Source: a virus
Lineage: Duplodnaviria > Caudoviricetes
Virus record (IMG/VR): IMGVR_UViG_3300042542_005195
Location: 1 to 58,796 of that record
DNA: 58,796 bases
Strand: one strand, 5' to 3'
Shown: positions 23,626 through 54,696 of the stretch, piece after piece
How the letters are laid out: each line of letters starts with the position of its first letter
How positions within the stretch are numbered: the stretch's first letter is position 1
The notes under the pieces: model-generated
The model's input: only the letters and a program-made list of their open reading frames with translations
Database searches by the model: none
Told to the model about the DNA's origin: nothing
Program-made: the position numbers and the translations under genes

Positions 23626-25119
23626 ATGTCTATAAATAATTCATATTTCAGTAGAAATAATACCATATTATCTAACGTTTATACAAACACAGGAAAAGCC
23701 CCTGTGACACAATTATATTTTGGAAATATAAATCCTGAAAATCCAATACCTGTTTATTCTAGATTTATTTTTAATTTAGACTTATCTTTATTGGAAGAAA
23801 AAATCTCAAACGGTATAATCCAAACAGGTTGCACATCATCAATGACTCACACATTGATTATGACTAACACGGCCTTTTCTTCTCCTGATTTGTTAAAAGC
23901 GAACAGATTTGGTGATACCATAACAAGAGGTGCAGGATTTGATTTGATATTATTTAGAATACCGTTAACATCAGGAGCGACAGGTATGGAACAAACTTGG
24001 GATGAGGGATTAGCGTCGGTTTATGATTTAGGAATACAAATTAATGACACGGAATCTTTGTTTTCACGAGAAAATTATTCTACAGAACCATCAAATTGGT
24101 TTAAAAGGAAAATTACAGATGATTGGACAAACCCTGGATTATATAATAACGAAAACTCTCTGACAGGTTTAACAGGGCTTAATTATTCTGCTCTCACAAT
24201 TATTGCTGAACAACATTTTGAATTTGGAAATGAAAACATTTCATTTGATATGACAAATGAAATAAATGGAATTCTAAATGGTACAATTACTGGCGTTACA
24301 GGTTGGGGTGTTGCATTTAAACCATCGATTGAATTATTAACAGGGTTAACTTCGTATTATTCAGTTGGATTTTTTACTCGTCATACTCAAACTTTTTACG
24401 AACCTTATTTATTAACGGATTATGATGATTTAATTCAAGATGATAGGGATTTATTCTCATTGGGAAGAGCAAACAAACTTTATTTATATGTTTATGAAGA
24501 TGGAAGTCCAATTAATTTGGATTCTAACCCATATGTTAATATTATAGACAGTACAGGAGAACCAATATCAGGATTGACATCATTAACTACTTGTAGAAAA
24601 ACAAAAGGGGTTTATGAAGTTATTATACCAGCCTTATTAGGATATAAAGCCCCTTGTACATTTAATGACGTGTGGACAGGAATTACTCTAAATGGAATTA
24701 CACTACCAAACATAGAAAATGAATTAATTGTAAGACCTTATTCATCGTCAATTTCAATTGGTACCTCAACAAACGACCCATCTGTTTATGGTTTTGATTA
24801 TTATGGTATAAGACAAGATGAAAAAATTCTAAATACTGACATTAGAAAAGTGGGTGTCATAATAAAAAAAGAATATACATCAAATCAACCTCTTAACAAA
24901 ATCAAAGCGTATTATAGGGTTTATGTTAAGGAGGGTCAAACAGAAGTTCAAGTTCAAGATTGGACACAGGTTAATAAAACTCCAAATGAATACTATTTTA
25001 TTTTTGATACAAGAGATAAAATTCCAAACGAATATTTCATAGATTTAAAGTTGAATATTAATAGTGAAGTAACAACATATAAAAAACAAATAAAATTTCA
25101 AATTGTAAATAAAAAATGA
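23626..25119 (+). CDS. Putative virion structural protein
   Basis: T/G/N-rich, beta-type composition; preceded by TATTTATA; seven [ST]GxT motifs. Confidence 0.6.
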   Translation: MSINNSYFSRNNTILSNVYTNTGKAPVTQLYFGNINPENPIPVYSRFIFNLDLSLLEEKISNGIIQTGCTSSMTHTLIMTNTAFSSPDLLKANRFGDTITRGAGFDLILFRIPLTSGATGMEQTWDEGLASVYDLGIQINDTESLFSRENYSTEPSNWFKRKITDDWTNPGLYNNENSLTGLTGLNYSALTIIAEQHFEFGNENISFDMTNEINGILNGTITGVTGWGVAFKPSIELLTGLTSYYSVGFFTRHTQTFYEPYLLTDYDDLIQDDRDLFSLGRANKLYLYVYEDGSPINLDSNPYVNIIDSTGEPISGLTSLTTCRKTKGVYEVIIPALLGYKAPCTFNDVWTGITLNGITLPNIENELIVRPYSSSISIGTSTNDPSVYGFDYYGIRQDEKILNTDIRKVGVIIKKEYTSNQPLNKIKAYYRVYVKEGQTEVQVQDWTQVNKTPNEYYFIFDTRDKIPNEYFIDLKLNINSEVTTYKKQIKFQIVNKK

Positions 25120-51730: not shown

Positions 51731-52110
51731 GGGGATGACATAGCATCGATTGGCACGGTTGTCAATCAAGGGCGCATCAAGGACGAACTAACCTTGTCAA
51801 AATGGTTCAAATCAATAGACGGAAACGTTATCAACAAACTTTCAGCTGTAGGACTTGTTCGTACTTCTGAAACAGTAGCAGTAGCCTAAGGCGAACCTAC
51901 CTCGGGTCGGCGTACTTATAACCTAGGAACAGAAGTACTTGAAGTGTGTGGTTTCTACCAAAAAAGAAACAAAAACCTCGTTTTGTCTGTTATGAGGAGG
52001 TATTCAAAACAGAATATTTCGGAACATTATGAATTAATGTTGTAATATGTGCGTAGTCCTTGATTCGCAAAGTGAGCAAGACCGGGGGGCGGCACCCCGC
52101 ATCTCCACCA
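51731..52110 (+). ncRNA. ssrA: tmRNA (one-piece)
   Basis: GGGGATG/CATCTCC-ACCA acceptor stem with G3.U70, T-stem CGGGG/CCCCG, and tag ORF 51821-51889 (A)GNVINKLSAVGLVRTSETVAVA*. Confidence 0.93.
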
Positions 52111-52143: not shown

Positions 52144-52954
52144 ATTTTAATAGGGATGCGGCATATTCCAATGCCCCCCAATGACCAATTCCTGAAGGTG
52201 TCTCTGTCGCCCCATCAACAACACCTGAACCCCTACCTTGACTTGGACCAACAATTACATTACTCGCAGGCACTCCTTTACTTACCGCATTATTAATTGA
52301 TGTTCGGACACCTGCAGATATCGCATAAGGTTCAACAATAAAAAGTTTATTTTTATCATCCATTGCACTTGAAATATCATTTGCATATCTGCAACCCGCG
52401 CTAAATAAAATCACATATGAATTTGGATTATTCTTTATAGAATTTAAAACATCAGATAACTCAAAATATCTATGTCCAATAACATTTTCTGAACCTGATG
52501 ATTTTTTAACTTTGTCAACTTGTTGATTTATATTTAAATCACCTCCTCTTGTATCTAACCCACCCATTAAAATGATATCGGAATTACCGCCATCTTTTTT
52601 TACTGTAATTGTAGAAGGTTCATTTTTTTCTTTTTCAATTTCTTCAGATGAAGATTCCGATTTACAAAAATCGGGTGTTTTCCATTCTACCTCTTTATCT
52701 TCCAATTTTTTAATATAACCTGTTGTTATCGGACCTACAACTCCGTCATCTTCAATCCCCATATCAGATTGAAATTTTTGAACACATTTTTTTGTTTGCG
52801 GACCAAATTTACCGTCAATATAAATCCCTAAAATTTTTTGTAATTCTTCAACATCAGTACCAACTGAACCTACTTTTAGAATTCCATCCAAAGTAAAGGA
52901 TTCATCAATTCTCATGATTTCTTTTATTCTTAATATGTTTTCAATCAAATTCAT
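52142..52954 (-). CDS. Peptidoglycan-binding domain plus alpha/beta-hydrolase-like domain
   Basis: LK.GS.G.DVEELQ..L...DG.FGP.T...V..FQ.....DGVVGP.T, followed by LFSAG and a C-terminal GH. Confidence 0.75.
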   Translation of the reverse strand: MNLIENILRIKEIMRIDESFTLDGILKVGSVGTDVEELQKILGIYIDGKFGPQTKKCVQKFQSDMGIEDDGVVGPITTGYIKKLEDKEVEWKTPDFCKSESSSEEIEKEKNEPSTITVKKDGGNSDIILMGGLDTRGGDLNINQQVDKVKKSSGSENVIGHRYFELSDVLNSIKNNPNSYVILFSAGCRYANDISSAMDDKNKLFIVEPYAISAGVRTSINNAVSKGVPASNVIVGPSQGRGSGVVDGATETPSGIGHWGALEYAASLLK

Positions 52955-52970
52955 AATAATAAATATCATA

Positions 52971-53006
52971 AAAATAAAAAAGGGTCATCACCGAAGTGAA
53001 AACCCT
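52971..53006 (-). terminator. Terminator of the minus-strand RNA island
   Basis: AGGGT-tt-TCAC-TTCG-GTGA-tg-ACCCT followed by TTTTT (cUUCGg loop). Confidence 0.8.
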
Positions 53007-53347
53007 GTTTGGCTATTGGTTTCGTGGTTGGGTTTCCAATAAACCCAAGTTTAATTGTAGTGAGCAAATAACTCGAATCGTTCGACCACTCGACGGATGT
53101 GTTAAACAGTTAATTACCTCTGTTTTTTATTCGTTTCGCTGAACCCCAAACGAACGGTGTGGTTATCACATCTACTCACACTCTTTAAAAGGTGGACTAT
53201 TTTTTTGTTTTCATGGGTATGGGGTATGAAACACATAACAAGTTCCTAGAACATAAACAAAAAACCCCCGAACACAATATTTTTTTTGTTTTTTTATTAT
53301 CCCGAAAAATTAGGTGGCTTCATCCGATTCCACCGTAAACGGTTCAC
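53007..53347 (-). ncRNA. Unidentified highly structured ncRNA (about 340 nt)
   Basis: No ORF of 60 aa or more; at least seven helices plus loop-loop complementarities; lies between the tRNA and the terminator. Confidence 0.6.
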
Positions 53348-53350
53348 TAG

Positions 53351-53424
53351 TTGCGACGCTTTGGAGTTGAACCAAATTAGTGATGCTTATGAGACACCCC
53401 CAGATACCGACCTGACCGCCCGCC
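53351..53424 (-). tRNA. Atypical tRNA with CAT anticodon (Met/fMet-like)
   Basis: Cloverleaf with anticodon loop CTCATAA, T-arm TTTGG-TTCAACT-CCAAA and D-stem TCAG/CTGG. The acceptor stem is irregular and is followed by CTA. Confidence 0.8.
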
Positions 53425-53447
53425 ATATTTTATAACCATAAGTAAAG

Positions 53448-53542
53448 AACAATTTCAGAATATGCTACTGACTCGCGTATAATCGGTGACTTTCATCACT
53501 CTTTATTGTCAGGTTCACACCAGACCTCCTTTCTGAATTGTT
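53448..53542 (-). ncRNA. Putative ~95-nt structured RNA or leader
   Basis: Ends pair (AACAATTCAGAA / TTCTGAAATTGTT) around CTGAC/GTCAG and GTGAT-GAAA-GTCAC. Starts just after TAACTTTG. Confidence 0.5.
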
Positions 53543-53545
53543 TGA

Positions 53546-53575
53546 CAAAGTTAAGTATTTTTTTTCAGTTGTCAA
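53546..53575 (-). promoter_or_regulatory. Promoter for the RNA island
   Basis: TTGACA (53575-53570), N16, TAACTTTG (53553-53546). Confidence 0.65.
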
Positions 53576-53595
53576 GCACTTTTTTTGATTTTTTT

Positions 53596-53662
53596 CATCT
53601 CCCCCACCCTATCATAAAAACAACAACCTAAATACTGACAGGGTGGGGTGACATCCAAATCT
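53596..53662 (-). ncRNA. Putative small hairpin RNA
   Basis: 13-bp stem CCCCACCCTGTCA/TGATAGGGTGGGG with a 21-nt loop. Own promoter TTTG-N19-TACCTTTG (53697-53667). Confidence 0.45.
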
Positions 53663-53779
53663 TTCACAAAGGTAAAAACTTTTTCGGATATCACAAAATT
53701 AAATTTAAAAAAAAACTATTTGACTTCTTAAAAAATGTTAATTATAATTGAACTTGAAATAAACAAAATTATAAGAACT

Positions 53780-53938
53780 ATGAAAAATCTATTATTTATT
53801 TTTGCAATCGTCATTGGACTTTCATCTTGCGGTGGGTCATCAGAGGGAACTCCATCAACTGATTCTACTTCAGTAGATTCTACAGTGGTTGATTCTTGTA
53901 CTGTAGATACTTGCAAAGTTGATTCTTGCAAAAAATAA
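53780..53938 (+). CDS. Small lipoprotein with D(S/T)x repeats
   Basis: MKNLLFIFAIVIGLSS-C lipobox; promoter TTGACT-N17-TATAAT at 53720-53748; hairpin at about 53961-53993. Confidence 0.75.
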   Translation: MKNLLFIFAIVIGLSSCGGSSEGTPSTDSTSVDSTVVDSCTVDTCKVDSCKK

Positions 53939-53994
53939 TTTACACAAGATTCACAAAAATAACCCTGAACATTAATTTGTTTGGGGTTTTTTTA

Positions 53995-54696
53995 TTAAAA
54001 CAATCTTTTGATTTTTTCTATTTCCTCTTTTAACAGATTTTGGAATTCTGTATTTCGATTCTCATTTGTCTTATTCTTATTAGCAGGAGTAAACCAAGTT
54101 TTACCCTTTAAAGGTGGTGCATATCTTTCCTCATCTGACATTTTACTTTTTTTTGCAGGAGTAAAAAAGGATTTTCCTTTGAGCATATTCAGAGGTGCGG
54201 CTAACGCATCGGCAAATACTTGATGCGCAATAGTTAATCCCTTGGTTCTTTTAAAAGCACCTGTGGAGGTGTCGTCACCATAAGTTTTTATATTTTGAGA
54301 TTTAGGTTTCGTTTCCTCACCTTTATTTCTTGTTGTTTTATTTTCAGGTTTTTCTCCTGAAACTCCAAAAAAGCTACTTGGGCTCAAATTACTAAATCCA
54401 TCATTTATACTAAACTCAACAGGGTTCGAGCCAAATCTACCTATTTTCTGACCAGTAGATACATTATCACCTCTTGATACCAATATTGTATTAACACCAC
54501 AAAATTCAGAATAAATGGTTGAGCCATTGAAATTGTGTTTTATTTTTATATTACCTCCACATGACGAGTATGATGTTGTTGTTACAACACCGTCGTAAGG
54601 AGATAAAATTTCTTGCATGTTATATCCTGCATATTCTAAAACATTATCACCTTTCTTATTTGACGAACCGTTTATTGGTTTTATAAATGTTGACAT
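53995..54696 (-). CDS. M23 peptidase-fold protein, catalytically degenerate
   Basis: SPYDGVV...GGNIKIKH...V..GD.V..GQKIG pattern, without HxxxD or HxH. Confidence 0.65.
   Translation of the reverse strand: MSTFIKPINGSSNKKGDNVLEYAGYNMQEILSPYDGVVTTTSYSSCGGNIKIKHNFNGSTIYSEFCGVNTILVSRGDNVSTGQKIGRFGSNPVEFSINDGFSNLSPSSFFGVSGEKPENKTTRNKGEETKPKSQNIKTYGDDTSTGAFKRTKGLTIAHQVFADALAAPLNMLKGKSFFTPAKKSKMSDEERYAPPLKGKTWFTPANKNKTNENRNTEFQNLLKEEIEKIKRLF

Follow-up and report, generated by a model that had tools for sequence, protein, structure and literature searches.

A conserved structured RNA module behind tRNA-Met and GOLLD in freshwater phages, very probably a new family of noncoding RNA

What does a phage keep in the gene-free DNA behind a decayed transfer RNA (tRNA)? 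The DNA analyzed here, called the window, is the whole of the IMG/VR virus record IMGVR_UViG_3300042542_005195 (58,796 bases, G+C content ~30%, estimated completeness ~20%). Its positions 52970-53994 lack open reading frames (ORFs) of more than 67 amino acids (aa), and a preliminary description of the sequence had called ~340 nt of this region coding-free. That description proposed a structured noncoding RNA (ncRNA) on the minus strand, and comparison with relatives bears this out. Positions 53348-53008 of the minus strand very probably encode a member of an undescribed family of structured ncRNAs from large freshwater phages, here called the Y RNA. Y is a conserved module of ~320-340 nucleotides (nt) in the window and 400-450 nt in other clades; viral contigs contain 22 distinct homologues, lake metagenomes contain 13 distinct close variants, and the Y sequence is found in contigs from RNA libraries. 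The preliminary description could assign no family by eye, and no Rfam family, GOLLD and ROOL included, matches Y at curated thresholds (whole window) or at E ≤ 10 (52600-54000). Of the identities that had been offered, a compact GOLLD/ROOL-class RNA or a new class, the first is therefore set aside and the second stands: among phage RNAs of an already known kind, Y is a new family. Its setting, behind a tRNA-like element and with an intrinsic terminator at its end, is typical of GOLLD and ROOL, as had been remarked. A literature search found no description of the Y module; the original GOLLD paper and its supplements lay outside that search and may note a 3' extension.

The relatives were reached through the neighboring RNA ligase gene, the only neighbor that worked as a probe (302 candidate stretches, 297 confirmed relatives, 80 loci kept); the peptidoglycan (PG)-binding protein, the M23 peptidase, and a 449-aa protein yielded no relatives when used as probes of viral contigs. 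One relative, L002, has a ligase 88% identical to that of the window and matches the Y region at 85% identity. In many loci a tRNA-Met(CAT) lies 3-4.7 kilobases (kb) downstream of the ligase gene and is followed by ~400-450 nt of ORF-free DNA carrying the motifs of the window. Scans with a Y pattern returned 56 and 49 stretches, and ~20 of the 56 from the first scan, which lacked the AGTGAC anchor, were treated as chance matches. Together with the window, L002, and the GOLLD-bearing relative L003, the scans gave 26 distinct sequences. Four pattern matches that gave no alignment (L137, L138, L140, and L153) were excluded as chance, leaving 22 distinct homologues. A metagenome scan added 17 close variants of Y from lakes, 13 of them distinct. 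Y is conserved across phages whose RNA ligases share only 61-88% identity. The window DNA is itself well represented in lake water, with 14 metagenomic DNA runs containing 81-100% of the words sampled from it. Among deposited phage genomes, blastn with the gap of the window gave no match, and blastn with the GOLLD-tRNA-Y region of L065 gave 142 matching records, none covering even 80% of the query; these matches are due to the tRNA part alone, all 15 of the matches listed falling within query positions 614-705.

How does the RNA fold? RNAalifold run on MAFFT alignments gave poor and inconsistent structures, and it was replaced by anchored hairpin finding plus a covariance model because stems were misaligned between clades. 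The anchored search found hairpins at the same places in 22 of 22 sequences, made of many different stems. The fold of Y is a row of hairpins (P2, P4w, H1, H2, H3, H4, H6, and H5), most of them supported by compensatory changes in homologues, the evidence for which the preliminary description had called. In the 22-sequence alignment, 90.9% of the 241 cells of H1 and inner H6 pair, as compared to 29.9-53.9% when the partners are slid, and 8 of the 11 pairs show two-sided changes. Among the 13 close variants, 95.9% of 559 cells pair (32.6-53.0% with slid partners) and two-sided changes are seen in 9 of 43 pairs, located in H1, H2, H3, and H6, a number reached by 1 of 500 shuffles. The strand is fixed as minus because the frequent G.U pairs would be A.C on the opposite strand, an argument that the preliminary description had also used.

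The Y RNA opens with AGUGA (53348-53344; this and all other Y features are on the minus strand), which in the family stands directly after the tRNA or GOLLD and is invariant in all alignment rows. It is complementary to UCACU in the loop of H6, which suggests a pairing for which covariation is impossible since both sides are invariant. Hairpin P2 (53334-53313; GGUGG, 12 nt, CCACC) is invariant within the subgroup of the window, whereas L003-type sequences have GACGG/CCGUC at the same site and other clades have other stems. P4w (53232-53207; GUUUCAU, loop ACCCCAUACCC, AUGAAAAC) covaries in close relatives: among 12 distinct sequences every cell (100%) pairs, and two of six pairs have two-sided changes. 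The C-run of its loop is complementary to a G-run at 53269-53265, invariant on both sides, and judging from the sequence the two may form a pseudoknot. H1 (53181-53157; GUGUG(A), a loop ending in GAUAAC, CACAC) has the (U/G)AUAAC loop ending and the CCAC 3' arm of the family, the innermost pair being A.C in the window. Family-wide, 89.4% of its cells pair and three of six pairs have two-sided changes (85.9% and two pairs in the close variants). H2 (53154-53130; UUCGUUU, loop GGGGUUCAGCG, AAACGAA) pairs in 100% of cells of the close variants, with two-sided changes in two of seven pairs, and across the 22 sequences its site holds at least 10 different stems. H3 (53125-53104; AAACAG, 10 nt, CUGUUU) pairs in 97.4% of cells with two of six pairs two-sided, and one of its pairs is U.G in seven, U-A in four, and C-G in two of 13 sequences.

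H4 (53093-53073), which has ACGA in its loop, can be drawn as UCGAGU/AUUCGA or as an inner UCGA, ACGAU, UCGA hairpin at 53085-53073. Its inner four base pairs (bp) are invariant in the close variants and its outer stem is shifted in L003; other clades have covarying stems (ACCC/GGGU, AACU/AGUU, ACUC/GAGU, and ACCU/AGGU) around a CACGAUAGA-type loop. H6 (53071-53051; UUAUUUG, loop CUCACUA, CAAUUAA) has the family's 7-nt loop NUCACUA and one U.U mismatch (53068/53054). Its five inner pairs form in 92.7% of cells family-wide and all five show two-sided changes; in the close variants 91.2% of cells pair and three of seven pairs are two-sided. H5 (53048-53028; UUGGGUUU, loop AUUGG, AAACCCAA) is the 3' hairpin that the preliminary description had written as TTGGGTTT/AAACCCAA. 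It pairs in 98.1% of cells, and 3 of 13 sequences have G.U at one of its pairs, compatible with the minus strand alone. The H-type pseudoknot proposed there, between the loop (AUUGG, 53040-53036) and CCAAU (53019-53015), is possible: the complementarity is present, and in 13 distinct sequences both sides are invariant while the linker varies. The three other named hairpins, TTCGTTT/AAACGAA, AAACAG/CTGTTT, and TCGAGT/ATTCGA (H2, H3, and H4), are likewise where that description had put them, most of them also in the minimum-energy fold, and like H5 they hold in the comparison.

Members of the family end in a same-strand intrinsic terminator. In the window this is a hairpin at 53005-52976 (GGGUUUUCAC UUCG GUGAUGACCC) followed by a U run, already recognized as a UUCG terminator in the preliminary description; variants have matching changes, for example GGGUUGUCAC..GUGAUAACCC, and a consensus scan did not list it. 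In the clade of L065, L067, L103, L150, and L015, the sequence AGGCUA before the terminator is complementary to UAGCC in the loop of the terminator. At the same site L015 has GGUUA with UAACC, and this change on both sides suggests a terminator-loop pseudoknot in that clade, which the window lacks.

Covariation favors the row of hairpins over the two-multibranch architecture that had been drawn for this RNA. The 10-bp helix thought to close the first multibranch does pair in 83.9% of 205 cells (22 homologues), as compared to 37.9-57.5% when slid. However, its 3' strand consists of the loop and 5' arm of H6, and H1 overlaps its 5' strand, so that the two arrangements are mutually exclusive, and H1 and H6 are the better supported. 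L002 has two substitutions that disrupt the 10-bp helix, and one of them turns the U.U mismatch of H6 into a pair. The A/U helix thought to close the second multibranch, TTTTTTGTTT/AAACAAAAAA, pairs in 70.2% of cells (49.5-66.7% when slid), shows no covariation, and was not retained. The three long-range complementarities that had been noted are not kept in variants. For ACCCC/GGGGT, only 5 of 17 rows retain the GGGG of the H2 loop, whereas ACCCC or CCCCC persists; for TGAACC/GGTTCA, both sides vary in an uncoordinated manner; and for GGTGGA/TCCACC, it is the local partner that co-varies in L003-type rows (GACGG/CCGUC) and not the distal site.

When the window and L002 alone were used to build a covariance model, it found L003 at 115 bits and the other clades at the expected coordinates with 12-24 bits (E 7e-5 to 0.5). 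The latter scores are weak, and homology to the other clades is argued from the position that they share, the order of the motifs, and the L003 type as a bridge.

Is the Y sequence present as RNA? Six metatranscriptome runs from six studies contain 33-39% of the sampled words of 52975-53600. Contigs were examined in four of these runs (X15, X16, X17, and X19, from four studies), and they cover 53008-53333. The X15 contig spans 53019-53333, that of X16 53094-53330, that of X17 53008-53328 with sequencing adapters abutting both ends, and that of X19 53013-53328 in two overlapping pieces. The contigs stop before the terminator, at 53008-53019, and together their ends give a weak hint of ends near 53330 and 53008. 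A further low-depth contig of X16 covers 53419-53603 and continues into an L003-type tRNA. In the four runs no contig covers 52654-53007, 53334-53418, or 53604-54100, gaps that are not evidence of absence or of processing. An 87-nt record of X16 touching 52619-52653 is loose at both ends and looks unrelated.

What lies upstream of Y? In relatives the order is leader, GOLLD RNA, tRNA-Met(CAU), Y, and terminator, usually with a transfer-messenger RNA (tmRNA) gene nearby on the other strand. The Rfam GOLLD model (RF02032) matches 9 of 10 loci at 304-328 bits over model positions 1-416, the exception being L002, and it matches 8 of 12 further viral loci. Among the 17 metagenome loci, GOLLD is found in three, all of L003 type; the other 14, which include some short fragments, lack it. 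A motif proxy tried as a GOLLD census was discarded for missing known cases such as L003. The final model hairpin of the GOLLD match ends ~10 nt before tRNA-Met and Y begins immediately behind the tRNA; therefore, Y lies beyond the described 3' end of GOLLD. The window has the phage location beside a tRNA gene that is characteristic of GOLLD, being a virus record with a tRNA-like element directly upstream of Y. GOLLD itself is found neither directly upstream nor anywhere else in the 58,796-base record (no match of at least 150 bits in the window, and none even at E ≤ 10 in 52600-54000), and it is likewise absent from the 40,813-base record of L002. The window and L002 define a GOLLD-less Y subgroup, to which 14 of the 17 metagenome loci belong.

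GOLLD, the tRNA, and Y are separable modules, found in every combination tested. GOLLD stands alone with a terminator in L080 and with a tRNA in L009 and L010; it is joined to Y without a tRNA in L053, L073, L062, and L105, and is followed by both tRNA and Y in L003, L005, L015, L045, L065, L067, L103, L128, and L135. In L094 the order is GOLLD, a GIY-YIG-like ORF, a tRNA-like element, and Y, whereas the window and L002 have a leader, a tRNA-like element, and Y without GOLLD.

The tRNA that the preliminary description placed upstream of Y is present as a tRNA-like element only. This degenerate tRNA-Met(CAU)-like element (53427-53350, minus strand) has intact anticodon and T arms and a defective acceptor stem. 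ARAGORN at default settings reports no tRNA at 53350-53427, and the best Rfam score there is 15.6 bits (tRNA-Sec), as compared to the tRNA cut-off of 29. ARAGORN with -ps80/-ps70 calls a tRNA-Met(CAT) at this site, the acceptor stem of which contains two G.U pairs and one mismatch; in the ARAGORN drawing the anticodon loop is 7 nt long and contains CAU, and the T-arm loop is of the UUCAACU type. The element aligns with the tRNA-Met of relatives, fills the same slot, and is 100% identical in the window and L002, whereas the flanks diverge. In the near-identical metagenome backbones L158-L174, the slot holds three unrelated tRNA-Met types: that of the window, which fails both detectors; an L003-like type, called by ARAGORN but not Rfam; and a canonical type (52-57 bits). 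An HNH-like ORF adjoins the slot in L165 and the GIY-YIG-like ORF does so in L094, which suggests a swappable cassette exchanged via homing endonucleases. The GOLLD-adjacent tRNA-Met is canonical (41-65 bits, Rfam) in L045, L015, L066, L067, L135, L103, and L128; it is below the Rfam threshold in L003, L005, and L010, where ARAGORN still calls it, and is called by neither program in L009. The tRNA in the GOLLD-adjacent slot thus appears to decay repeatedly.

Upstream of the tRNA-like element lies a 5' leader domain (53539-53440, minus strand) with a closing stem formed by AAUUCAGAA (53539-53531) and UUCUGAAAUU (53460-53451) and an inner GUGA..UCAC hairpin (53499-53486). The leader is common to L002 and GOLLD-bearing L003, and in the latter its counterpart is the start of the noncoding region. 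A G-C pair of the inner hairpin is A-U in L002, changed on both sides, and by eye the closing stem has one extra C-G pair relative to L003. In L002 (2690-2850), L158, L160, L168-L170, and L173, the leader contains an insertion of ~150 nt between two copies of AATTCAGAAA. This insertion is homologous to the post-leader region of L003 and looks like the remnant of a lost GOLLD 5' part; given the L003-homologous leader and this remnant, the GOLLD-less state looks like a deletion. Before the leader is an inverted repeat (TTGACAA...TTGTCAA; 53575-53541, minus strand) that resembles a promoter and may be one of the -33/-7 type. It is kept in all close variants and has 77-89% identity to a stretch found ~480-620 nt upstream of the GOLLD match in L005, L009, L045, L062, and L080. 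Note that one RNA contig extends to 53603, upstream of this promoter-like element. Just upstream of the element, at 53648-53602 (minus strand), is a strong 13-bp hairpin (CCCCACCCUGUCA ... UGAUAGGGUGGGG); L002, L003, and the metagenome variants retain it, and no U run follows.

Several observations weigh against reading Y as a folded, independently acting RNA. Its fold energy is no better than chance (z = -0.67 on the minus strand, 28 of 100 shuffles folding as well, and z = -1.00 with 20 of 100 on the plus strand), and the case therefore rests on comparison rather than thermodynamics. The alignments that gave the main counts had been fitted to the structure under test or derived from it, and the sequences are related, so that the shuffle controls overstate significance. 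One H6 pair is unpaired in 6 of the 13 close variants, and the inner stem of H4, H5, and both proposed pseudoknots have no informative variation there. Since the 10-bp long-range helix beats its slid controls, alternative folds are possible, and the 12-24-bit scores are a weak link between the subgroup of the window and the other clades. The RNA contigs attest to sequence present in RNA libraries rather than to strand, level, or true ends. They begin 15-20 nt past AGUGA, within P2, and leave the terminator hairpin outside; their starts are at odds with a mature RNA that includes AGUGA and the 5' arm of P2. The link of Y to GOLLD is one of adjacency only, and with a record ~20% complete a GOLLD gene may lie elsewhere in the genome.

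What, then, might Y do? One precursor transcript would carry the leader, the tRNA(-like) element, and Y, and tRNA-processing enzymes would use the tRNA(-like) element as their cutting mark and so free Y. A single precursor is suggested because the modules are on the same strand with no terminators between them and one RNA contig spans leader and tRNA. The cutting-mark reading is suggested because the tRNA-like element is perfectly conserved yet noncanonical and lies between modules; decay to a tRNA-like element combined with perfect conservation is what would be expected of a processing signal rather than of decoding. We infer the two steps together with a confidence that is evenly balanced. 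The ~540-nt transcript with embedded tRNA of the preliminary description fits the relatives and the leader-into-tRNA contig and stands as a putative, rather than proven, precursor. That AGUGA would pair with the H6 loop UCACU, at least in this precursor, is a reasonable possibility just short of an even one. Once released, Y would be a stable, folded RNA that works in trans, serving as a scaffold or decoy instead of controlling the gene behind it, in the infection-stage, translation- or tRNA-related process of GOLLD, a process that would include GOLLD, tmRNA, tRNA arrays, and RNA ligase. Action in trans is favored because Y is large and ornate, survives without the tRNA or GOLLD, and is followed by differing genes; the proposal as a whole is tentative. 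It is unlikely, although conceivable, that Y is an autonomous ornate RNA with its own higher-order assembly or ribonucleoprotein and forms, with GOLLD and tRNA-Met, a phage RNA toolkit shuffled by recombination. If so, the tRNA(-like) element would be a cutting mark plus a cargo or tether, Y alone would suffice for part of the function, and the role of GOLLD could be tested by comparing the natural module combinations.

Y could instead be a third domain or docking partner of the GOLLD particle, its GOLLD-less copies decaying or relying on a distant GOLLD gene. Y directly follows GOLLD in all clades but the subgroup of the window, with a gap of only ~15-35 nt and no tRNA in L053, L073, L062, and L105; the ~150-nt remnant of L002-type sequences points to recent GOLLD loss, and the low completeness of the record leaves room for a distant gene. 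We consider this distinctly unlikely, since GOLLD occurs without Y (L080, L009, and L010) and Y without GOLLD (14 of 17 metagenome loci), the GOLLD-less copies still show compensatory changes and hence continued selection, and RNA contigs contain Y alone, without GOLLD. The solved GOLLD cages are, in the accessible portions of their descriptions, built of P1-P27 alone. It is improbable, too, that Y is a cis-acting 3' trailer serving processing, stability, or termination of the upstream tRNA(-like) element or GOLLD, or a leader of the downstream gene. Such a role would account for the constant same-strand placement of Y behind the other RNA genes, the intrinsic terminator that always ends it, the immediate contact of AGUGA with the tRNA 3' end, and, in the window, a same-strand gene that begins ~10 nt past the terminator. 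However, 340-450 nt with eight conserved hairpins and conserved loops go far beyond the needs of a trailer, Y persists where the tRNA is absent (L053 and L062) or degenerate (the window), and RNA contigs hold Y without the tRNA part. The downstream genes vary, tblastn with the PG-binding protein of the window having found no homologue beside Y in the fetched loci.

That the region is functionless, either a decayed gene or a spacer between genes in which hairpins arose by chance, is hardly credible. The nonsignificant minimum free energy z-scores would fit such a spacer, and a 40-aa ORF overlaps Y at 53114-53236, but, as judged by eye, that frame is broken by indels in L002 and has no ATG at the corresponding site in L003. 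Y is moreover kept, with compensatory changes, across phages with ligases of 61-88% identity, and contigs from RNA libraries cover it. A trans-acting Y released from a precursor is therefore the reading that we carry forward, at the strengths given above.

By domain, the window proteins include a ClpB-like ATPase, the T4 Rnl1-type RNA ligase, and cell-wall hydrolase domains. The Y locus has as neighbors the ligase gene and a tmRNA gene (51731-52110, plus strand, 69.2 bits), and relatives also have tRNA arrays. The tmRNA is on the strand opposite GOLLD/Y, ~0.5-2 kb away, in 6 of 10, 6 of 12, and 10 of 17 scanned loci, that is, in most relatives. A small ORF at 53735-53938 (plus strand) has an internal start that yields a lipoprotein-like signal (MKNLLFIFAIVIGLSSC). 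Its sigma-70-like and terminator-like sites lie at 53720-53748 (11 of 12 matches) and 53961-53988, respectively, and no homologue of the ORF was found by tblastn in the fetched loci. ARAGORN also calls an 80-nt tRNA-Trp(CCA) at 23680-23759 (minus strand), within an ORF of the opposite strand (23626-25119), which is probably a false call because Rfam does not report it.

How does Y compare with known systems? The tRNA cluster of phage T4 encodes species 1 and 2, stable small RNAs of unknown function that are co-transcribed with tRNAs and released by tRNA-processing enzymes. Y resembles these in organization only and likewise has a T4-type RNA ligase nearby; the T4 RNAs are much smaller. A tRNA-like element serves as a processing mark in the eukaryotic MALAT1-mascRNA system. 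There, as in the window, a cloverleaf that is a poor tRNA stands between RNA modules, and cutting by RNase P/RNase Z in the phage is proposed by this analogy. Among phage RNAs, Y is like ROOL in being a large structured RNA near a tRNA(-like) gene. According to the accessible parts of the sources, ROOL is large and structured, is encoded by phages and prophages, often in the vicinity of tRNA islands, and has an unknown function (PMC5737381, 10.1101/2024.12.08.627333). Y differs from ROOL in matching no Rfam model at the gathering score or at E ≤ 10 and in having a row of hairpins as its supported structure.

The closest comparison is to GOLLD, the immediate upstream neighbor of Y in relatives. 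Both are large, hairpin-rich, phage-encoded ncRNAs found beside tRNA genes, on the same strand, and in lake metagenomes. As far as the available text of the sources goes, tRNAs are embedded in or beside GOLLD, sometimes in the linker; the 3' part of GOLLD (P14-P27) is conserved and its 5' part variable, and a Met-tRNA lies upstream of the env-38 GOLLD that was imaged (10.1101/2024.12.08.627333, PMC12990946). The GOLLD model does not match Y, which falls outside the P1-P27 that have been described and is at most half as large as GOLLD; GOLLD assembles into a cage, and Y has no known oligomer. Few orphan RNAs of bacteria and phages are as large or as well studied as GOLLD, whose cage is solved and whose function is unknown. 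A second conserved structured RNA in its transcription unit, separated from it by a swappable tRNA-Met and persisting in GOLLD-less lineages, is a new handle on that function, for which natural variants already offer every module combination and lake RNA libraries already hold the Y sequence.

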